DNA from: Pseudomonadota bacterium
GTDB lineage: Bacteria > Campylobacterota > Campylobacteria > Campylobacterales > Sulfurimonadaceae
Direction of reading: 5' to 3'
Length of the DNA stretch: 64,000 nt
Assembly: GCA_043797085.1 (NCBI GenBank)
Contig: JAZDQA010000013.1
Location: 128,001-192,000 of the forward strand
Made by a program: the position numbers and the translations under genes. The notes below the pieces were generated by a model. That model did no database searches, was not told where the DNA came from, and saw nothing but the letters and a program-made list of their open reading frames with translations. Each line of letters opens with the position of its first letter. Position 1 is the stretch's first letter. Below are positions 39,545-48,655 of the stretch, piece after piece.

Positions 39545-39850
39545 TTGAAAACAATTGAACTCATAATGATGCTCGCATTTGCCGGCGGACTTGTCCTGAC
39601 ACTCTATAAGGTATATCTCTTTCTCCCGCAAAAACCTCTTGAAGACGATGATACTACTTCCAGTTCCATTGAAGCGCTCGAAAAAATCATGGTTGAATCT
39701 AACCGTGATGGCATAACCGAAGAAGAGCTATTTGAAAAGATGCGTAACCATCCCGAGTTTGACACGAAACATTTTTGGAGATTTAACCCCAACCGCCTTC
39801 GCCACCTCATCGACAACTATCGCCTTAAAGAACCAAATTTTCGTCGCTAA
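39545..39850 (+). CDS. Hypothetical protein with N-terminal TM anchor
   Basis: AAGGAAG RBS, TTG start, TM helix, then HFWRFNPNRL. Confidence 0.7.
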   Translation: MKTIELIMMLAFAGGLVLTLYKVYLFLPQKPLEDDDTTSSSIEALEKIMVESNRDGITEEELFEKMRNHPEFDTKHFWRFNPNRLRHLIDNYRLKEPNFRR

Positions 39851-40568
39851 GAGATGTTGCATTTGGATTACACGTAATCTTATGCTCCATGTCTACTTTC
39901 TCATAATTCTCCAACTCTCTCACGGATGCAACGGTCGCCGTACGATATCCCTCACCCTGATTCAAATAAATATTAAACCCATTTTCATAAAGAGCCAACC
40001 GTGTTGCTAACGCCATTGAGTAGGTGGTCACAATCCCCTCATTCCCCATCAGTCGTGCGATATCAGCAAAATACTCACGAGTCCAAAGCGCTGGGTTACT
40101 AGAGGGGCTAAATGCATCTTGATAACAGACATCCCATACCCCATCTAACTCTCTCATCGCAACCCGTGCATCGGTAATCTCAACCGTAATACGAGTCCGT
40201 TCATCCTCATATTGTCCACCAACAGCAAGCTCTGTAATCACCTTTTTGTATGGTTCAAAGATTTCAGGATAAGGAAAATCTATCAAAGAAGCAACCAGCG
40301 CACCATCCAATTCGGGAGAATAAATTTTCAGCGTCATATTAGGAAAATATCTATCACGATAATATAGGCTAAGAAGAGTATTAAAACCAAGCCCGAAACA
40401 AATATCGATGATTTTGAGATTATTTTTTTCGCGATGGAGCACAAAAGCAGGCTCAATGTGTTTTTTGAGTGATTCGTTTAACGCTCCATCTTTGGTCGAG
40501 TGGTAGTGCTCATCGTATTCGCTGCTGTATGCCGTATAGCTCCCATCTTCGCTCTCAACCCAGTTCAT
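39825..40568 (-). CDS. mnmD: Stand-alone MnmC methyltransferase domain (MnmD/MnmC2; mnm5s2U34 methyltransferase)
   Basis: DGSYTAYSSEYDEHYHS..GALNES, DICFGLGFN, YQDAFSPSSNPALWT; start ~40568-40571. Confidence 0.88.
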   Translation of the reverse strand: MNWVESEDGSYTAYSSEYDEHYHSTKDGALNESLKKHIEPAFVLHREKNNLKIIDICFGLGFNTLLSLYYRDRYFPNMTLKIYSPELDGALVASLIDFPYPEIFEPYKKVITELAVGGQYEDERTRITVEITDARVAMRELDGVWDVCYQDAFSPSSNPALWTREYFADIARLMGNEGIVTTYSMALATRLALYENGFNIYLNQGEGYRTATVASVRELENYEKVDMEHKITCNPNATSLSDENLVL

Positions 40569-41047
40569 CACAACCCTGCTCCCCACATGTGCAACTTCTT
40601 AGCCACAATAACCTCATACCCATCGATCAAATCGATAATCGCATTGATCGCTCGAAATTCGACCTGATCGAGGAGTGATTCGACCTCAGCAATACTCATC
40701 GAACCGTTTTTTTGGACGATAATAATCTCGGAAGCGTTGAGTAATGTGCGGTAAAGTAACTCTAAAAATTTGCGCGGTGATTCATGCAGATGCAACACAT
40801 CCTGCACGATAACAGCAGCGTAATCGCGTGGAACTCCCCCTGCGGGAGATTTATAATCTTTAATCATAAAGGTTTTATGAAAAGTGGTATGGGTTAGACT
40901 TTGATGATTCCCCGGAAAAAGTGAAAAATCGATCAACCCCTCATAAGAGATGAGAAAATCACCCAATTCCTCCGTCATAGCGTCCAAATGGCTTGTCGCT
41001 ACCATGATTTTCGTATGGGGTGTCGGATGGAGAAGTTGGGTAATCAT
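40568..41047 (-). CDS. Hypothetical protein, degenerate class I methyltransferase-like
   Basis: DYAAVIVQDVLHLHESPRKFLELLYRTL resembles the C-half of class I SAM methyltransferases; no GxGxG motif. Confidence 0.6.
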   Translation of the reverse strand: MITQLLHPTPHTKIMVATSHLDAMTEELGDFLISYEGLIDFSLFPGNHQSLTHTTFHKTFMIKDYKSPAGGVPRDYAAVIVQDVLHLHESPRKFLELLYRTLLNASEIIIVQKNGSMSIAEVESLLDQVEFRAINAIIDLIDGYEVIVAKKLHMWGAGL

Positions 41048-41352
41048 AGTGCCAAATCGTGCAACTCGCGGAAAAGATACGCTTCAACAATATCATCAAT
41101 AGTACGTTGTGTATGAGCGACCAAAACCATCATCTGATGCTCGATAAACTCCATCACCGGCTCATAATTGCCCGTAATGATAACCGCATCAAGCCAACCG
41201 TCGATTTCACTGCGATCGGTATAAAATTTAATTTCGACCACTTGCCCTTCCTCAACCTCAACAGTCGCCCAGTAGGTTGCGGATAAAATTCCGACGAGTT
41301 CACTCTCTTGAGTATCATCGCCGTTCATCGGTAACAAAAGCAACATAATCAA
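41044..41352 (-). CDS. Small NifB/NifX (FeMo-cofactor binding)-like fold protein
   Basis: PM...[15 protein letters not shown]...DAVI...[10 protein letters not shown] pattern; overlaps the luxS stop. Confidence 0.55.
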
Positions 41353-41852
41353 TCTACCTTTGAGAGATCAAGCTTCAGCGCTTCATTATCCATAATATCG
41401 ATGTCTTTTCGGAGCACTTCGGCAGCAATCGCTTTCGCATCTTCGAGGGAATGCATTGCACATGTTCCGCATTGGTAGAGGTTGAGTTCAGGAATATCAC
41501 TTTGTTTTTCAACGGCAATCACATCATGCATAGAGGCTTCCCACGCTTCAACCACTTCCTCTTCCGTAGGAGCACCGATAACGCTCATATAAAACCCAGT
41601 ACGGCAACCCATAGGAGAGAGATCGATAATCTCCGTTTTAGCTGAGTTAAGATGGTCACGCATAAAGCCTGCGAACAAATGCTCTAACGTATGAATCCCC
41701 TCTTGAGATAAGATTGCCTCATTCGGACGGCAAAAACGTAAATCAAAAACGGTAATATCATCCCCCTTTGGAGTTTTCATCCCCTTTGCGCGACGAACGG
41801 CAGGTGCGGGCATAATAGTGTGGTCTACGGTAAAGCTATCTAGTAATGGCAT
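41349..41852 (-). CDS. luxS: S-ribosylhomocysteine lyase (AI-2 synthase)
   Basis: [33 protein letters not shown]; true start at 41852. Confidence 0.98.
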
Positions 41853-41886
41853 GTGCATCCTTAAAAAATTTATTTTAGTTGAGGCA

Positions 41887-41920
41887 ATGGTAACATATTT
41901 CATCCTTGAGGCGCTATAAT
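41887..41920. promoter_or_regulatory. Putative divergent promoters for luxS and the aldolase gene
   Basis: TGnTACCAT on the minus strand (41887-41892 hexamer) and TATAAT on the plus strand (41915-41920) within a 91-bp gap. Confidence 0.5.
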
Positions 41921-41943
41921 TTGGCAATTAATTAAGGAATATT

Positions 41944-43122
41944 ATGAAAAGCCTCTTTGACGATTCCATCGCCACCCGATATCAAAACGATCCACTGGCA
42001 GTACGGGTCTACACCTCTCAATTACTGGGTCAAAACAAAGACTTAGTCTTGCATGGAGGGGGAAATACTTCCGTAAAAATCGATGGTGTACTGTACGTTA
42101 AAGGAAGCGGATGGAATCTCGACACCATTGAAAAAGAAGGATTTTCTCCCGTTGATTTAGCCACACTCATAGAGATGGCCTCTCGTGACACTCTAACTGA
42201 TACTCAAATGGTCAAAGAGCAACGCGCCGCAATGAGCGATCAAAGCTTTCCAAACCCTTCTATCGAAGCAATACTTCATGCCATCATCCCGTTCACCTTC
42301 GTCGATCACACTCATGCCGATGCCGTTGTCACTCTAAGCAATACCCCTAACGGAAAAGAAATACTCGAAGAGCTTTATGGTGAGAACATGGTTATTATTG
42401 ACTATGTGATGCCGGGATTTGAACTGGCACGTCATATTTATTTACAAACTTTAGATCTAAATTGGAAAAATATTGAGGGAATTATTTTACTCAATCACGG
42501 TGTCTTTACTTTTGATAATGATGCCAAAAAAGCATATGAAAAGATGATAACACTTGTCACAAAAGCTGAAGATTACTTACAACAAAATGTCACTTTTCTT
42601 TCTAATACGAGCAAGGGAAATATCGACGTGGAGATTATTCGGTCATTAGTTCACGAAGTCGGCGTACTGCGCGGGTGTGATATTTTTCCCATCTTTTTGG
42701 ATTCCGACCAAGCCAAAGCACTCAGCACTCGCCCCAATTTAGAGCGACTCATCAAACAAGGCGAACTCACCCCTGAACACGTCATTCGCATCAAGCCTTT
42801 TCCTGCTATTATTAATACCGATTGTGCAAAAGGGATAGAAATATTTAAAACCGAGTATCAGAATTATTTTGATAAAAACAGCAATGCTAACCATATCTGT
42901 CTCGATCTGGCTCCTCGCTATGCGATTGTTAAAGGATTGGGGGCAGTTGCGCTGGGTAAAGATGAGAAAGAGTCTCGAATCATCGCCGATATCGTAGAGC
43001 ATACCATTACTGCAATTTTAAGTGCCGAACAGCTTGGAGCATGGACGTCTCTTAGTCTTGCACAGATGTTTGAGATGGAGTATTGGGAATTAGAGCAAAT
43101 CAAATTAAAGAACGCCAAATGA
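41944..43122 (+). CDS. Class II aldolase/adducin family protein (aldolase part of RhaD-SDR-type proteins, no SDR domain)
   Basis: LVLHGGGNTSVK, VKGSG, PSIE..LH, HTHAD, LNHG, TPEHV, EYWELEQ.KL. Confidence 0.88.
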   Translation: MKSLFDDSIATRYQNDPLAVRVYTSQLLGQNKDLVLHGGGNTSVKIDGVLYVKGSGWNLDTIEKEGFSPVDLATLIEMASRDTLTDTQMVKEQRAAMSDQSFPNPSIEAILHAIIPFTFVDHTHADAVVTLSNTPNGKEILEELYGENMVIIDYVMPGFELARHIYLQTLDLNWKNIEGIILLNHGVFTFDNDAKKAYEKMITLVTKAEDYLQQNVTFLSNTSKGNIDVEIIRSLVHEVGVLRGCDIFPIFLDSDQAKALSTRPNLERLIKQGELTPEHVIRIKPFPAIINTDCAKGIEIFKTEYQNYFDKNSNANHICLDLAPRYAIVKGLGAVALGKDEKESRIIADIVEHTITAILSAEQLGAWTSLSLAQMFEMEYWELEQIKLKNAK

Positions 43123-43185
43123 GCAAAGCCCATTCGGCTACGCTCGCCGCTATGGCACTAAAGCTTGCCTCTGTCGAGGCAGATT
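43110..43185 (+). repeat. Three-hairpin intergenic repeat, copy D (overlaps the aldolase stop codon)
   Basis: Reverse complement AATCTGCCTCGACAGAGGCAAGCTTTAGTGCCATAGCGGCGAGCGTA-GCCGAATGGGC ttt GCTCATTTGGC-GTTC. Confidence 0.85.
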
Positions 43186-43208
43186 AAATTACTGTACAAA
43201 GGAAAAAA

Positions 43209-43514
43209 ATGAAAATAACCAAAAAAGTAACTTTTATCGCTAAAGAGGAGCATATTTCTACGGTCAAAAAACTTCTAGAAGACATGGTAGCCCCTTCACT
43301 CAAAGAGCCTGGCTGTCTCTTTTATTACATCTTCCAATCTCAAAACAACCCGAAGAAATTCTTTGCCGTTGAGTCATGGGAAAATAACGAAGCACTTGAG
43401 GGGCATAAGCACACGGAGCATTATGCATACTATAAATCGCACTATGAACCATTTGTTGAGAATAAGTATACAGAAGATTTGGAACTTTTAGATGAAGAGG
43501 TGTATGGGTTTTAA
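43209..43514 (+). CDS. ABM-domain protein, LsrG-like / putative quinol monooxygenase
   Basis: EPGCLFY...F..VESW....ALEGHKHTEHY; adjacent to lsrK. Confidence 0.85.
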   Translation: MKITKKVTFIAKEEHISTVKKLLEDMVAPSLKEPGCLFYYIFQSQNNPKKFFAVESWENNEALEGHKHTEHYAYYKSHYEPFVENKYTEDLELLDEEVYGF

Positions 43515-45043
43515 ACTCCCGGAGCCTTCCACATAGGTTCTAACGTACTGTCACGGACAAGCTCCATCTGTTTGGCATAAACTCGTACCCATTTCTCTTT
43601 AACTTCTTGATAGGCATGAAAATTGGATTGATTTGGTTCATAACAACGCTCTATTTTTACAATATTTTGACCTGCTTCGTCAAAGCTTTTATAAATCCCT
43701 GCACCTATCCCGCACGCCATCGCTACACCCAATGCGGTGGCTTCTTTTACCACAGGGACTTTTACTTCCAATCCCGTAACATCGGCTAAAATCTGTGACC
43801 ATAACGCTCCATTTGACGCACCGCTTGCGAAGGTAAGCTGCGTTGGGGAAACACCGCTAAAGGCTTTTATGTTGTCAAGATTGATGGCACTTACGATGCA
43901 CGCATTTTCTTCCAACGCTCGAAACATGGAACCGATATTGTATTTGCTGCTGTCTAATCCAAGCCCAATAAACGATGGTGATGCGTGTATCCACTCTCCA
44001 TACTTCATGCTGTCGCTAAAAACAGGGATAATTCCATACGAACCGACGGGAATCTGTGATGCTAACGCTTCGAGCTGCGCGTAGCTTTTACCGCCACCTA
44101 ACGCATCTCGAAACCATCGCATCACAAGACCTGTAAAAAAAGTAATTCCCTCTGCTTGACTCATATCACGTACAACATGAGGATTTACACGCAATAGCAT
44201 ATCTCCTGAAAGTACTGTGTCTGAGGGTATATTGACCACTTGCTGCCAAAAACTTCCCCCTAACACAACCGCATCACCCAACTTATTTGCCCGAAGTCCT
44301 GCCGTACCGATTTGAACGTCACCACCCCCCATAACTACCAGAGTTTCAGGGCTTAAACCTGTCTCGTTGGAGGCTTGAAGGCTTATTTTTCCTAGAATAT
44401 CACCGCTTTCCAAGATAGGCACAAACAAATCTTTTAATCCGCATTGGCTGAACTGTTGCTTATCCCAATCACGATTTTTGAGATTAAACGCCCCTGCCGT
44501 CCCTGCATTGGAAGGCTCACTTGCTAATTCCCCACTGAGTTTAAACAGTATCCAGTCACTTATCATCGTAAAATAAGTTGCTTTTTCATACAAAGACAGC
44601 TGATTGTTTTTTAACCATAAAAGTCTTGGAGCTGCAGAAAGAGCAAATGTTTGCCCGCTTGATTGATAGAATTCTCTTTCCATATCAGGGTACGTATTTT
44701 TTAGAGTGCCAACTTCTAATCCAGAGCGACTATCGACATTTGCTACACCCCAAAGCTCATTCTTATCCTTATCATAAACGATAACTCCCTCACGCATGCT
44801 CGAAGCGGATAGCGCAATTATCTCTTTAGCATTTATCCCTGCTTTTACAACAACTTCTTTTATGCATTGTTTTGCCAATTCCCATCCATGGATAAAATCA
44901 AAGCCCATCGACCCTGCAATATTCTCTGACGCAATATGATTCCATTCATGTTGTGCAATCTCGATTTGATTTCCCAGCGTATCAAAAATGACAGCACGGA
45001 CACTTCCGGTTCCTGCATCTATACTTAAAAGATATTGCTTCAT
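43511..45043 (-). CDS. lsrK: Autoinducer-2 (DPD) kinase
   Basis: FGGY kinase with LsrK-type segments DAGTGSVRAVIFD, ANVDSR, PSNAGT, GGGDVQ, LGGSFWQQVVN, RVNPHV, ALEENA, VKEATALG, WKAPG. Confidence 0.9.
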   Translation of the reverse strand: MKQYLLSIDAGTGSVRAVIFDTLGNQIEIAQHEWNHIASENIAGSMGFDFIHGWELAKQCIKEVVVKAGINAKEIIALSASSMREGVIVYDKDKNELWGVANVDSRSGLEVGTLKNTYPDMEREFYQSSGQTFALSAAPRLLWLKNNQLSLYEKATYFTMISDWILFKLSGELASEPSNAGTAGAFNLKNRDWDKQQFSQCGLKDLFVPILESGDILGKISLQASNETGLSPETLVVMGGGDVQIGTAGLRANKLGDAVVLGGSFWQQVVNIPSDTVLSGDMLLRVNPHVVRDMSQAEGITFFTGLVMRWFRDALGGGKSYAQLEALASQIPVGSYGIIPVFSDSMKYGEWIHASPSFIGLGLDSSKYNIGSMFRALEENACIVSAINLDNIKAFSGVSPTQLTFASGASNGALWSQILADVTGLEVKVPVVKEATALGVAMACGIGAGIYKSFDEAGQNIVKIERCYEPNQSNFHAYQEVKEKWVRVYAKQMELVRDSTLEPMWKAPGV

Positions 45044-45264
45044 TTCATCTCTTTCATATTCACATCAAATTTCAATGAACTATTTTTAGTATTTTTTTGA
45101 TCAATCGACTTGATTTCCACATTACAAATACTGTCTTTAAGATTTTCTGCAAGAATCAGTAATTCTTCATGAGTATCGCGTATTGCAATTCCACGTGCAG
45201 AACATCCGACGACTCCACGGTTATTATAGGTCATTCTGTACATATAGTTCATTATCCAATACAT
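45040..45264 (-). CDS. Small hypothetical protein overlapping the lsrK start (ATGA)
   Basis: 70-74 aa ORF whose TGA overlaps the lsrK ATG; no recognisable family. Confidence 0.4.
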   Translation of the reverse strand: MYWIMNYMYRMTYNNRGVVGCSARGIAIRDTHEELLILAENLKDSICNVEIKSIDQKNTKNSSLKFDVNMKEMK

Positions 45265-45483: not shown

Positions 45484-46443
45484 TTATACGCGCGCTTCTT
45501 CACGACGTTGGAGCTGTTCCCATTTCAAATCGACACGTGTTTGCCACTCATCGATAAGATATTCGTATTGCTTAGTGAAAAGGTGTTTGAAACGCCCTTG
45601 AGCACCTAAATAATCACGAACCGGGATAATATTTTTCGGACGATACGTGATGTTTAACTCTGTACCGTTAATGATTTCATACAACGGGAATACCAAAGAA
45701 TCGGTAGCAAGATCGGTAATAGCGATCGTATCTTCCGGTGCAAATTTCCACTCAGTTGTACAGGCAGAGATAGCATTAATAAATACTGGACCCTCTGCTG
45801 CAAACCCTTTTTGAATTTTTGCGACCATGTCTTTCCATTTACTTGGAGAAACCTGAGCGACGTACGGAGCACCGTGTGCTGCCATGATCGCCATCATGTC
45901 TTTTTTATTGCGCTTTTCACCGTAGCTTACGCGTCCTGCAGGTGTTGTCGTAGCCGATGCACCGATTGGAGTTGAACTTGAGCGCTGTCCACCTGTGTTT
46001 GCATACACTTCATTGTCCAAACAAACGTACATCATGTTATGTCCGCGTTCAAAACAACCTGAAATCCATTGGAATCCGATGTCATAAGTCGCACCATCGC
46101 CACCAAACGCAACAAACTTAGGAGTGCGTTCTGGTTGCTTTAAGCGACCTTTGGTTTTAAGTGCTTTGTACATCGCTTCCGCACCGGCAACTGCAGAAGA
46201 ACCGTTTTCAAATCCGATGTGAATCCAAGATGCATCCCACGAAGTATACGGATAAACCGCCGTACATACTTCCAAACATCCCGTAGAAGCTGCAAGAATC
46301 AAGTCGTCATTTGTAGCATTAAGTACTTCGCGAACAATAATCGAGTGCGCACACCCTGGGCATAAAAGGTTAGCACCCTCAAAGCGATCCGCCGAAGTGG
46401 AAAACTCTTTAAGGTTTTTGATTTTTTTAATTTCTGACATCAT
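45484..46443 (-). CDS. porB: Pyruvate:ferredoxin oxidoreductase beta subunit
   Basis: LCPGC, TGCLEV, GGDGATYDIG (TPP), DNEVYANTGGQRS. Confidence 0.95.
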   Translation of the reverse strand: MMSEIKKIKNLKEFSTSADRFEGANLLCPGCAHSIIVREVLNATNDDLILAASTGCLEVCTAVYPYTSWDASWIHIGFENGSSAVAGAEAMYKALKTKGRLKQPERTPKFVAFGGDGATYDIGFQWISGCFERGHNMMYVCLDNEVYANTGGQRSSSTPIGASATTTPAGRVSYGEKRNKKDMMAIMAAHGAPYVAQVSPSKWKDMVAKIQKGFAAEGPVFINAISACTTEWKFAPEDTIAITDLATDSLVFPLYEIINGTELNITYRPKNIIPVRDYLGAQGRFKHLFTKQYEYLIDEWQTRVDLKWEQLQRREEARV

Positions 46444-46450
46444 TCACCCC

Positions 46451-47671
46451 TTAGAAAAATGAAAGCTTCGGTCCACGAAGACCGATGTATTGTTGCAATG
46501 GTGTTGTAGGTTTTCCTGCATCCATATTTGCTTTAAGGTCATTGAAAATGCCCACTAAATGTGCTTTAGTCAAATCACGTCCACCCAATCCATAAATATA
46601 GTTGGTAAGAACTGCTTTGGTATCGGTATTGAAAAGTGAACCTGAAATTTCATTGAAAAGCATACCCATAGTTCCATGAGGACTAGAGCGATCCAGTGTT
46701 CCGATTGCTTTGACATCTTTTAGTACTGCAGCAAGTTGCTCCATTGGCCATGGACGGAAAACACGAATACCGACAACACCCGCTTTAATTCCGGTTGCAC
46801 GTAATTCATTGACAACTTCCATTGCAGTTTCAACCGATGTTCCCATACAAATAACTGCTATTTCAGCGTCATCCATCTGGTGAGTCTCGACTAAATTATA
46901 TCGGCGACCCGTTAATGCTTCAAAAGCATCAAAAGCTGCTTCTAATTTAGGAATAACCGCCGTCATAAGTGCATGCTGCTGACGTGCTTTGTGCTCAAAG
47001 TGCCAATCTTCTTCCGTTTGAACCCCATGAGTTACCGGATGGTCAAGGTCAAGCATATCATTCATAGGCTGGAATTCACCAACGAAGTTAAAACCTTGCT
47101 CATCGGTCATAGTGTGAACACCCTGAGCTGTATGAGAGGTCATAAACCCGTCTTGGTGAACCATTGCAGGAAGACGAACATCGTGATCTTCAGCAACTTT
47201 GAATGCAATAAAATTCAAATCGTACGCGTGCTGAGGGTTATACGCATCAAGCTGAATCCATCCGCTGTCGCGACCCATATACATATCGGAGTGATCGCCA
47301 TTAACGTTCAAGGGAGCACCGATAGCACGGTTAACAACATTAAGAATGATCGGAAGACGCATTCCAGATGCTGAGTACAATGTCTCAACCATCAAAGCAA
47401 AACCTTGTGATGACGTTGCTGTCGCAACACGACCGCCGGCAGCCGATGCACCAATACAACATGACATTGCACCATGTTCAGATTCAGTCATTACAAACTC
47501 ACCGTCAACATAAGCATTCGCGGCAAAACCAGCGTAATTTTCAACAATTGGAGTCGATGGAGTAATCGGGTATGCCGCTACAACATCCACTTGAACTTGG
47601 CGAAGCGCATGGCTCGCCGCCATATTACCATCCCAGACTTCGATGTCTCGTAGTTCCATAGTATCAGCCAT
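46451..47671 (-). CDS. porA: Pyruvate:ferredoxin oxidoreductase alpha subunit
   Basis: AAYPITPST, ESEHGAM, TATSSQG, NRA. Confidence 0.95.
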   Translation of the reverse strand: MADTMELRDIEVWDGNMAASHALRQVQVDVVAAYPITPSTPIVENYAGFAANAYVDGEFVMTESEHGAMSCCIGASAAGGRVATATSSQGFALMVETLYSASGMRLPIILNVVNRAIGAPLNVNGDHSDMYMGRDSGWIQLDAYNPQHAYDLNFIAFKVAEDHDVRLPAMVHQDGFMTSHTAQGVHTMTDEQGFNFVGEFQPMNDMLDLDHPVTHGVQTEEDWHFEHKARQQHALMTAVIPKLEAAFDAFEALTGRRYNLVETHQMDDAEIAVICMGTSVETAMEVVNELRATGIKAGVVGIRVFRPWPMEQLAAVLKDVKAIGTLDRSSPHGTMGMLFNEISGSLFNTDTKAVLTNYIYGLGGRDLTKAHLVGIFNDLKANMDAGKPTTPLQQYIGLRGPKLSFF

Positions 47672-48087
47672 TAGTCTTCCTCTACTTCTGTATCTTTTTC
47701 TTTTTTCTCTTTTTTAGGCCATTGGGCAAGTGCTTCATCTTCATCTTTTTGCTCAGGAAACATCAACAATGATTTCGGATTGGTTGGACATACTTCCACA
47801 CAAATTCCGCATCCTTTACAGTGATCAAAATCGATTCCGACCATCTTTTTATCGCGCGCAATAATCGACATGTCTGGACAATAAACCCAGCAAAACTGGC
47901 AATCAATACAATAGTCTTTGTTAAATAAAGGCTTTTCAATACGCCAATCCGCTACGCTTGCCGTAAACGAACTTGACTTCGAATATGCTCTGTCTTCTGG
48001 CAATGTTGTTGCAATGTTTTGTATCGCTCCATCAAATGTGCGAAGCATAGCGCCAATTTCAAATCCATCCCATCCTGCTTTTTCCAT
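47671..48087 (-). CDS. porD: Pyruvate:ferredoxin oxidoreductase delta subunit (2x[4Fe-4S])
   Basis: CIDCQFCWVYCPD, CKGCGICVEVCP. Confidence 0.95.
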   Translation of the reverse strand: MEKAGWDGFEIGAMLRTFDGAIQNIATTLPEDRAYSKSSSFTASVADWRIEKPLFNKDYCIDCQFCWVYCPDMSIIARDKKMVGIDFDHCKGCGICVEVCPTNPKSLLMFPEQKDEDEALAQWPKKEKKEKDTEVEED

Positions 48088-48097
48088 TCGGTGATCC

Positions 48098-48655
48098 TTA
48101 CTTTACTTCATCATAAGCGCGTTGAATCGCGATCATGTTGGCGTCAATTATTTTCTGAGGCAGTTTTTTCAATACACGAATCATGTTTTCTTTGAAAAAA
48201 TCCATTTCGTACATACCCGAAACCTTCATCAATGCGCCTAGCATTGGTGTATTGGGGATCGCTTTTCCGATTGTCTCTTGCGAAATTTTAATACAATCAA
48301 CGGTGTATACTTTTTTGCCTTCAAGCTTCGGCTGAGACGCAATAAGCTCTTGGGTACTCAAATGAGTCGTAATGATGTAAACCGTATCCGGCTTTTCAAA
48401 CGCCGTAAAATCAGCAACATAAACCAAAGCTGGATCAATTACCAAAACATAATCCGGAGCCATAAATTTTTCATGATTCATAATGACTTGATCATCTACA
48501 CGATTATACGCTGTCATCGCAGCACCACGTTTTGCAGAACCGTAGAACGCAAACGCCTGTACATGTTTTCCGGTGGTGGATACAACGTCCGCTAAACCTT
48601 TTGCACCCGTTACAGCACCTTGACCGGCGCGACTATGCCATCGAATTTCGAGCAT
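48098..48655 (-). CDS. porC: Pyruvate:ferredoxin oxidoreductase gamma subunit
   Basis: EIRWHSRAGQGAVT, YGSAKRGA, PNTPMLGA. Confidence 0.95.
   Translation of the reverse strand: MLEIRWHSRAGQGAVTGAKGLADVVSTTGKHVQAFAFYGSAKRGAAMTAYNRVDDQVIMNHEKFMAPDYVLVIDPALVYVADFTAFEKPDTVYIITTHLSTQELIASQPKLEGKKVYTVDCIKISQETIGKAIPNTPMLGALMKVSGMYEMDFFKENMIRVLKKLPQKIIDANMIAIQRAYDEVK

Follow-up and report, generated by a model that had tools for sequence, protein, structure and literature searches.

A candidate importer-less disposal pathway for the LuxS product DPD, with LsrK and a stand-alone class II aldolase, in Sulfurimonadaceae

The luxS-lsrK locus and its enzymes

We examined a stretch of 64,000 nucleotides from a Sulfurimonadaceae genome (contig JAZDQA010000013.1, positions 128001-192000; this whole stretch is hereafter the window), in which five genes at 41349-45264 form a cluster comprising luxS (-), a class II aldolase gene (ald, +), a gene for a small ABM-fold protein (abm, +), lsrK (-) and a small open reading frame (ORF, -). 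The genome is 2.40 Mb long and 95.86% complete, and its closest relatives are Sulfuricurvum metagenome-assembled genomes (MAGs; aldolase identity 96%). The luxS and aldolase genes are divergent with about 90 bp between them, whereas ald and abm converge on lsrK, with an overlap of 4 bases between abm and lsrK. A first-pass annotation had proposed luxS, the class II aldolase, the ABM gene and lsrK as a salvage pathway for 4,5-dihydroxy-2,3-pentanedione (DPD), the precursor of autoinducer-2 (AI-2); ORFs and family-model scores confirm these four genes at their positions, the coordinates bear out the divergent and convergent layout, and the conserved small ORF overlapping the lsrK start had been overlooked. 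On our best reading, the cluster encodes a compact pathway for DPD disposal and carbon recovery, with no importer and no repressor.

Table 1. Features of the luxS-lsrK locus in the window
Feature	Position	Strand	Remarks
luxS (S-ribosylhomocysteine lyase)	41349-41852	-	longest ORF extends to 41927; conserved ATG start 41852, giving MPLLDSF
Intergenic luxS/aldolase region	41853-41943	.	conserved TCGCTATAATTTG (-10-like TATAAT box for the aldolase gene, putative) and a second conserved block
Class II (zinc-type) aldolase, stand-alone	41944-43122	+	392 aa; form of the bifunctional aldolase/short-chain dehydrogenase family without the dehydrogenase
Short dispersed repeat copy	43136-43186	.	inserted between aldolase and ABM genes
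ABM-fold protein	43209-43514	+	101 aa; candidate P-DPD isomerase (LsrG role) or other accessory step
lsrK, autoinducer-2 (DPD) kinase orthologue (by sequence)	43511-45043	-	510 aa
Small conserved ORF	45040-45264	-	74 aa, probably 67 aa from ATG 45243; stop overlaps lsrK start
porB, porA, porD, porC	45484-48655		beyond lsrK and the small ORF

Judged by its sequence, the kinase is a true LsrK orthologue. It reaches 728.3 bits on the equivalog model NF008187, above the cut-off of 528 and across model positions 3-520 of 521, gives a full-length match of 548 bits to the solved structure of E. coli LsrK (5ya0), and shares 50% of its residues with the K-12 protein across 521 alignment columns, a comparison in which the LsrKs of other Campylobacterales reach 53-59%. 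Rhamnulokinase and fuculokinase models yield 48-108 bits on this protein, compared with 728 for LsrK, and it is the sole FGGY kinase of the genome. LuxS likewise scores above the equivalog cut-off (NF002602, 298.5 bits against 197; PF02664, 191.6 bits), and its start was set by the alignment of 22 intergenic regions, those of the window and 21 Sulfuricurvum loci. The products of the LuxS reaction are DPD and homocysteine. The genome yielded no hydrolase for S-adenosylhomocysteine (SAH) and encodes a Pfs homologue, so SAH recycling should proceed through LuxS and DPD should be made. Within Sulfuricurvum, one further locus (L021:8502-10061) has an LsrK in the same position as that of the window but only 52% identical to it; the LsrKs of other genus members are 76-89% identical to that of the window and the L021 protein is 68% identical to that of L075, and this closeness to other genera suggests, on sequence similarity, that the L021 gene was replaced by transfer.

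The aldolase belongs to the Aldolase_II family (PF00596, 79.2 bits against a gathering threshold of 22.2) and terminates exactly where the short-chain dehydrogenase (SDR) half begins in its fused relatives. Its match to NF006196 covers only positions 1-401 of 657 (426 bits, below the cut-off of 831), and on TIGR02632, the model of bifunctional rhamnulose-1-phosphate aldolase/SDR, it obtains 199 bits, below the cut-off of 568. In its AlphaFold model (predicted local distance difference test, pLDDT, 89.6) the N-domain has the class II aldolase fold, with Z scores of 30.9 to 3m4r, 19.3 to FucA (2opi), 16.3 to RhaD (1gt7) and 16.2 to AraD, and the structural matches include 6btg, the 5-deoxyribose-pathway aldolase of Bacillus thuringiensis. 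Foldseek alignments covered the N-domain only; for the C-terminal domain (about 227-366) a wide structural search returned no solved chain above Z 4.3, and the C-terminal extension of about 170-180 aa is conserved in the family. Across 21 homologues the motifs GGGN(41)xS, KGSG(56), S106/E108, H122xH124 and H185 are invariant. Two of these residues, N41 and H185, fall on the corresponding motifs of E. coli FucA in a MAFFT alignment whose middle third is misaligned; the other residue equivalences therefore rest on motif reading and on the roles (phosphate binding, the Glu, the His-x-His...His metal site) that we presume from FucA. Given the invariance of the phosphate-binding motifs, S106/E108, H122-x-H124 and H185, the aldolase looks catalytically competent for enediolate chemistry of the dihydroxyacetone phosphate (DHAP) type. 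It is the sole class II aldolase (Aldolase_II) of the genome.

The ABM protein is a member of PF03992 (57.8 bits against a gathering threshold of 23.1) and so shares, by sequence, its fold family with LsrG, the isomerase of phospho-DPD (P-DPD), a role that it would fill here. It is 30% identical to E. coli LsrG over 43 residues in BLASTP, and E54 and H65 of LsrG, which we take to be catalytic, are matched here by E55 and H66. Regarding the small ORF, tblastn places homologues just 5' of lsrK in 28 other loci, with the pattern MYRMTYN..GCSARGIA..ICN; it has no match in Pfam (E<=1) or NCBIfam, and its best ESM Atlas score (0.86) is below a meaningful level. It is also retained in a locus (L056) from which both abm and lsrK are gone.

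The absence of lsrACDB, LsrR and LsrF, which the first-pass annotation had reported for the locus, holds genome-wide by family models and tblastn, and no canonical lsrF or lsr transporter was found elsewhere in the genome. The genome contains no match to the DeoC/LsrF family (PF01791) or to an LsrR-type regulator (PF04198, Sugar-bind), no BPD_transp_2 permease of the ribose/Lsr type, and no tblastn match at E<=1e-3 to E. coli LsrF, LsrB, LsrC, LsrR or LsrG. Furthermore, MtnA (PF01008) and MtnK (TIGR01767) have no match in it (MtnP was not part of the search), and a reading of the window genes as the DHAP shunt, a salvage route for by-products of S-adenosylmethionine (SAM), was rejected for this genome on that ground. 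With a single FGGY kinase and a single class II aldolase in the genome, and no match to MtnA or MtnK, no supplier of a phospho-ketose to the aldolase can be recognised apart from LsrK. The one sugar-type periplasmic binding protein of the genome, of the RbsB/LsrB type (Peripla_BP_4; 21 bits on the LsrB model against 384), is a 306-aa RbsB-like protein encoded directly upstream of a 943-aa HAMP-PAS-GGDEF-EAL membrane protein (C11:132047-135798, -; L068:3048-6799); the pair looks like a sensor of a sugar, perhaps ribose or AI-2, feeding cyclic di-GMP (c-di-GMP) signalling.

Conservation and gene neighbourhoods of the kinase and aldolase

Of 151 genomes surveyed from the same family, 104 encode LsrK (103 of them with a score above the cut-off) and 108 the aldolase. 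When the two tables were compared by hand, 102 genomes had both, 2 LsrK only, 6 the aldolase only and 41 neither. The 8 discordant assemblies are mostly fragmented or incomplete, and within the same genus five genomes that are 99% complete have neither gene. The pairing of kinase and aldolase is not chance. The DeoC/LsrF family occurs in 11 of the 151 genomes and in none of the 29 of the genus (the genome of the window included), and it is missing from 96 of the 104 LsrK-positive genomes. LuxS itself is near-universal in the family (144/151), and the LsrK/aldolase module is thus an optional addition to luxS. All 24 genomes of the genus that have the aldolase carry luxS at most about 110 bp from its gene. 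The distance to lsrK is no more than 2 kb in 20 of them and 6.9 kb in one; in two others lsrK is on another contig, and in the last it was not found, the contig ending there. Among 63 genome loci fetched by the aldolase, luxS stands beside ald in 50, of which 35 also have lsrK and 10 are cut by a contig end.

Upon extending the search to other genera of the family, we observe ald in 16, abm in 18 and luxS in 6 of 20 LsrK loci. Six loci (L072, L074, L081, L084, L086, L087) are one-direction abm-ald-lsrK operons with gaps of at most about 220 bp, and several loci continue beyond lsrK with metK and a CofH/Mqn-type radical-SAM gene. Across the phylum, LsrK was present in 50 of 401 sampled genomes, from ten families, and in none of the 118 and 158 genomes of the two largest families of this sample. 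Twenty LsrK loci from other families include ald in 12, in the arrangements abm-ald-lsrK, abm-ald-lsrK-cupin and ald-lsrK-cupin, and in one of them (L103) a single strand encodes ald, lsrK, luxS and metK. The module therefore adjoins luxS, metK or both, depending on the lineage. The neighbourhood survey that the first-pass annotation had called for thus recovered the cluster in the genus, in the family and in other families of the phylum, and wherever a test that it had named in advance was open to computation, the result favoured its interpretation.

Two further arrangements recur. A Cupin_2 protein of about 125 aa is encoded directly 3' of lsrK, with or without abm, in nine loci (L080:5876-6340, L083:6007-6384, L093, L094, L095, L100, L105, L108, L109), of which L094 has ABM and cupin both; this protein could be an alternative or extra isomerase, and the genome of the window has no cupin homologue. 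Additionally, in L050-L054 (e.g. L050:5917-9603) the aldolase gene overlaps an upstream MFS_1_like gene of the major facilitator superfamily (MFS) and is followed by a gene for a 480-530-aa protein without family. All five genomes with such an MFS-linked aldolase carry LsrK elsewhere, and the transporter, which might be a carrier of DPD/AI-2, has no homologue in the genome of the window.

The aldolase family divides into stand-alone and SDR-fused forms, and their neighbours differ. In 79 metagenome loci with 80 aldolase genes (30 stand-alone, 42 fused, 8 cut), LsrK is encoded no more than 3 kb from 20/30 stand-alone aldolases versus 1/42 fused ones, and ABM within 3 kb of 23/30 versus 0/42. 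Restricting the count to genes flanked on both sides by 2 kb or more leaves LsrK near 12/14 stand-alone and 1/21 fused aldolases. Because the loci were selected by similarity to the query and are interrelated, these numbers outline a pattern and do not amount to a statistical test. The mtnA gene is near 6/42 fused aldolases, and in three of four loci examined the fused aldolase/SDR paralogue sits inside mtnK-mtnA operons, which gives concrete form to the analogy with the DHAP shunt that the first-pass annotation had drawn. The only fused case with LsrK nearby, L140:597-10468, has abm-metK-mtnK-mtnA-ald/SDR-ald-lsrK-mqnE on one strand, each aldolase adjoining its own kinase and every gene except ABM and the stand-alone aldolase scoring above the cut-off of its model; it would be a complete island for SAM synthesis, SAM use and by-product salvage.

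In the maximum-likelihood tree, the aldolase of the window falls in a luxS-linked clade (9 rows, support 99/96), and the operon-type aldolases form a separate clade (14 rows, 100/97) in which families are mixed. The fused aldolases lie outside both, and a single origin of all stand-alone copies is neither supported nor rejected. The tree departs from the family labels, for instance in placing L074 (f1) as sister to L101 (f11) with support 100/99. Two loci of the wider collection are of separate interest. In L085:9340-12066, a 908-aa open frame joins Aldolase_II, a partial short-chain dehydrogenase and a CofH/Mqn-type radical-SAM domain; G146 and G125 have counterparts of 909 and 580 aa, respectively. 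The frame is a genuine fusion, or else a degenerate aldolase/SDR gene with read-through into its neighbour. In a deltaproteobacterial MAG (L060:6935-10010), the fused aldolase/SDR is followed by an LsrF-like aldolase of the DeoC/LacD family.

Proposed pathway and alternative explanations

We propose, with a probability of roughly 60%, that DPD from LuxS passes through LsrK, the ABM protein and the aldolase to DHAP and a two-carbon acid, the aldolase replacing LsrF; our confidence in the chemical details is less than that in the pathway as a whole. LuxS, identified by orthology, would make DPD in the cytoplasm, and LsrK, whose substrate we infer from its own orthology, would phosphorylate it at C5 and trap it as P-DPD, such that capture would be purely intracellular. 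The ABM protein would then isomerise P-DPD to 3-hydroxy-2,4-pentadione 5-phosphate (P-HPD). The metal of the aldolase would bind the DHAP-like CH2OP-CO-CHOH end of P-HPD, and the C2-C3 bond would be broken to give DHAP and a two-carbon acid, most simply acetate formed via the ketone hydrate. A class II aldolase would thereby stand in for LsrF, a thiolase dependent on coenzyme A (CoA), in what would be a novel reaction for this superfamily. P-HPD corresponds to 5-deoxyribulose-1-phosphate with an oxo group at C4, and the latter is the type of substrate expected for the mtnK-mtnA-linked paralogue, and in related genomes the fused sister aldolase/SDR would end the MtnK-MtnA route for other SAM by-products. 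The LsrK-linked aldolase may be without an SDR half because its two-carbon product would already be an acid and not an aldehyde.

A broader and more tentative proposal, which we consider possible though not probable, is that many luxS-bearing environmental Campylobacterales are AI-2-silent, their own DPD being destroyed inside the cell by LsrK, an ABM or cupin isomerase and an SDR-less aldolase performing a metal-assisted hydrolytic (retro-Claisen) cleavage of P-HPD to DHAP and acetate. Together with MtnK, MtnA and the aldolase/SDR, this would constitute a two-armed return of the by-products derived from SAH, methylthioadenosine (MTA) and 5'-deoxyadenosine to central carbon.

Several observations weigh against the proposed pathway. 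Its chemistry has no precedent that we are aware of: the class II aldolase reactions known to us are retro-aldol cleavage, epimerisation, dehydration and decarboxylation, with beta-diketone cleavage not among them, and P-HPD is without the C4 hydroxyl of normal class II aldolase substrates. The ABM protein scores only 33.3 bits on the LsrG model NF007791, below its cut-off of 135, and its nearest solved protein is PA3566 (49 bits), with LsrG entries at E 0.006-0.04; on sequence criteria it is not an LsrG orthologue and is nearer to uncharacterised ABM proteins, and some LsrK loci carry a cupin in its place. At just 50% identity to the E. coli enzyme, LsrK has room for a shifted substrate. The surveyed genomes are related and not independent samples, and the aldolase-positive count includes at least nine LsrK-positive genomes that have only a fused aldolase, distant from lsrK. 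Nor is the linkage complete: four Sulfuricurvum luxS-ald-abm loci are without lsrK in the 4-6.6 kb downstream, L056 keeps ald and has lost abm and lsrK, and four LsrK loci of the family and 8/20 of those from other families show no aldolase in the fetched stretch. Moreover, luxS adjacency is confined to genera g1, g3, g6, g8 and g9 and could derive from a single ancestral arrangement, and in other Campylobacterales the stand-alone aldolase adjoins an MFS transporter. Finally, an importer is absent only as far as known families go, and the genome searched is 95.86% complete.

The same enzymes might act on external AI-2 taken up by an unrecognised importer, in which case the cells would scavenge or quench the signal of their neighbours. 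We regard this as unlikely, even though enteric LsrK acts on imported AI-2 according to the relevant passage of PMC3386761, other Campylobacterales with LsrK have the aldolase gene overlapping that of an MFS_1_like transporter, and the genome of the window does have one RbsB/LsrB-type periplasmic binding protein. That protein, however, is paired with a GGDEF-EAL sensor and not with a transporter; the genome has neither a BPD_transp_2 permease, nor matches to LsrB, LsrC or LsrR, nor a homologue of the MFS transporter, and in several lineages the module is tied to the producing side, namely luxS and metK. The 50-59% identity of these kinases to the E. coli enzyme, and the presence of metK and the radical-SAM gene mqnE after lsrK in several genomes, would also suit a kinase that has drifted to another SAM-derived deoxy-pentose, such as 5-deoxyribulose from 5'-deoxyadenosine. 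A mutarotase- or isomerase-like small protein, the FGGY kinase and the class II aldolase would then form a trio like those for fucose and rhamnose, producing DHAP and acetaldehyde by an ordinary retro-aldol cleavage, and the tie of the fused paralogue to mtnK-mtnA indicates that the family handles 5-substituted ribulose-1-phosphates. We nevertheless judge such drift improbable: the LsrK-model scores of these kinases, 730-888 bits (cut-off 528), far exceed those that they obtain on every other FGGY model, the linkage to luxS specifically indicates DPD, and no aldose-ketose isomerase family is recognisable in the module. With an aldehyde as product, furthermore, the dehydrogenase half should have been retained, but the aldolases paired with LsrK are SDR-less, and the two modules side by side in L140 argue for two substrates.

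It is also conceivable that the aldolase is unconnected to LsrK and acts on another phospho-ketose, with P-DPD a dead end, a regulatory metabolite or a compound that decays by itself, and the gene order reflecting inherited synteny. This would explain the loci in which luxS-ald-abm persists in the absence of lsrK, or ald in the absence of both abm and lsrK, as well as LsrK genes that stand alone or with a cupin only and stand-alone aldolases beside an MFS transporter. We give this little credence in view of the near-complete co-occurrence in the 151 genomes (102 with both, 41 with neither, and 8 discordant, mostly incomplete assemblies), the tight, overlapping abm-ald-lsrK operons of several families, an aldolase tree that ignores family labels, and the lack in the genome of any other kinase type able to supply the aldolase. 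As for an ordinary deoxy-hexose pathway of the rhamnose or fucose type misread as AI-2 genes, TIGR02632 is among the best named NCBIfam relatives of the aldolase, but the scores (199 against 568 bits on that model; 48-108 on rhamnulokinase and fuculokinase models against 728 for LsrK), a genome without a sugar permease of the ATP-binding cassette (ABC) type and with a single FGGY kinase, and a locus without isomerase or transporter make it exceedingly improbable. A rhamnose or fucose reading of the window genes was accordingly rejected, on the model scores and the lack of a second FGGY kinase.

It has long been disputed whether LuxS and AI-2 provide most bacteria with a signal or merely reflect metabolism, and no account of what becomes of DPD inside the cell is known to us outside the enteric Lsr system. 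A conserved LsrK module that has neither importer nor repressor and is joined to luxS or metK offers a concrete answer open to testing. If the proposed pathway is correct, a large group of sulfur-oxidising autotrophs would recycle DPD instead of broadcasting it, and counts of luxS genes would overestimate the AI-2 producers of groundwater, vent and sediment communities. It would also represent a non-orthologous replacement of LsrF, with a reaction type that is probably new for the class II aldolase superfamily, and would account for the occurrence of the aldolase/SDR family with and without its dehydrogenase half.

Surrounding features, expression and relation to known systems

In the luxS/aldolase gap, the conserved TCGCTATAATTTG is, judging from the consensus of the aligned regions, a putative -10 box of the aldolase promoter. 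The dispersed repeat between ald and abm lies outside the pathway; it has 19 additional partial matches of 20-53 bp in the same genome, and at 43125-43190 the summed contig depth is very high and many loose contig ends occur in four sequencing runs. The gap between ald and abm is only 3 bp in the closest relative (L002), in contrast to the repeat-bearing gap of the window. Downstream of luxS (39825-41352, -), a conserved 102-aa ORF, a conserved 159-aa ORF and a gene for an MnmC2-like SAM-dependent tRNA methyltransferase follow with overlapping or abutting ends; neither ORF matched a family in Pfam, NCBIfam or the ESM Atlas, and the SAH-producing methyltransferase may share one operon with the SAH-recycling luxS. 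On the other side, porB, porA, porD and porC are indeed next door, as the first-pass annotation had remarked, and we found no evidence of a functional link between them and the AI-2 cluster.

A groundwater metatranscriptome (X1) contains 73% of the sampled words of the locus. Its contigs (0-2 differences, >=99% identity) cover luxS, the aldolase gene, abm, both ends of lsrK, the junction of the small ORF with lsrK, and porB, and one RNA-library contig spans 44766-45216 across the small ORF and lsrK. The bins at 44280-44727 are uncovered and uninformative, the contigs give no strand, level or transcript ends, and carry-over of DNA is possible, so that this is weak evidence for expression of the locus in groundwater. 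In three other runs (X2-X4) the contigs are mostly 95-99% alike to the locus and hence come from relatives; they are probably DNA.

We found no published description of a module of LsrK, class II aldolase and luxS, the one paper retrieved for this combination being on the structure of LsrF, no publication linking LsrK to Sulfurimonas or to the DHAP shunt, no related title on LsrK in chemolithoautotrophs, nothing relevant on the catalytic residues of LsrG, and no paper relevant to an autoinducer-2 kinase in Campylobacterota, in a search that left subscription journals and supplements outside its range; the first-pass annotation had likewise known of no such description in Campylobacterota. In the passages found on LsrK and Campylobacterota, lsrK serves just as a marker of complete lsr operons, and the passage of PMC3386761 on Epsilonproteobacteria mentions only luxS for the group. 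The cluster would represent the known AI-2 breakdown route in a compact form without importer, repressor and LsrF, which we have not found in print.

Among related systems, the LsrK-cupin and LsrK-aldolase-cupin modules (L080, L083, L093 and others) resemble the cluster in combining an importer-less LsrK with small accessory enzymes, often including the same aldolase, whereas the genome of the window uses an ABM protein and has no cupin. The family of NF006196 and TIGR02632, which presumably includes RhaEW/YuxG of Bacillus subtilis, a bifunctional rhamnulose-1-phosphate aldolase/lactaldehyde dehydrogenase, shares with our protein a homologous aldolase domain and the conserved C-terminal extension of about 180 aa; here, however, there is no dehydrogenase domain, the scores are far below the cut-offs and there is no rhamnose context. 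Closer in theme are the Sulfurimonadaceae mtnK-mtnA-aldolase/SDR operons (L113-L115, L140), from the same bacterial family and with the same subject of SAM by-product salvage, whose aldolases are 46-51% identical over the aldolase half; the aldolase of the window differs in being SDR-less, in its partners LsrK and ABM and in lying in a separate part of the tree. The DHAP shunt, or 5-deoxyribose disposal pathway, comprises MtnK or MtnP, MtnA/DrdI and Ald2/DrdA. As in that route, a C5 by-product of SAM would be salvaged here by a kinase, an isomerase and a class II aldolase to DHAP and a two-carbon unit, but the by-product would be DPD from SAH, the kinase is the FGGY-type LsrK, the isomerase would have the ABM fold, and the substrate would be a diketone, so that splitting it would differ from a plain retro-aldol reaction.

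Linkage to luxS is not known for the lsr genes of enterics, and no luxS lies in the E. coli K-12 lsr stretch inspected. In the established route, as summarised in the relevant part of PMC6410053 (citing Marques 2014), LsrK converts DPD to P-DPD, LsrG converts P-DPD to P-HPD, and LsrF with CoA converts P-HPD to DHAP and acetyl-CoA. Overall, the cluster resembles the enteric Lsr system of E. coli and Salmonella (lsrRK, lsrACDBFG) in having what its sequence indicates to be a true LsrK orthologue together with a small ABM-fold protein, and in the proposed logic of phosphorylating DPD, isomerising it and splitting it to DHAP and an acetyl unit. It differs in that LsrACDB, LsrR and LsrF were not found in the genome and in that the ABM protein does not appear to be an LsrG orthologue; its genes, in turn, are linked to luxS or metK, and its terminal enzyme would be a metal-dependent class II aldolase instead of a thiolase with the class I aldolase fold.

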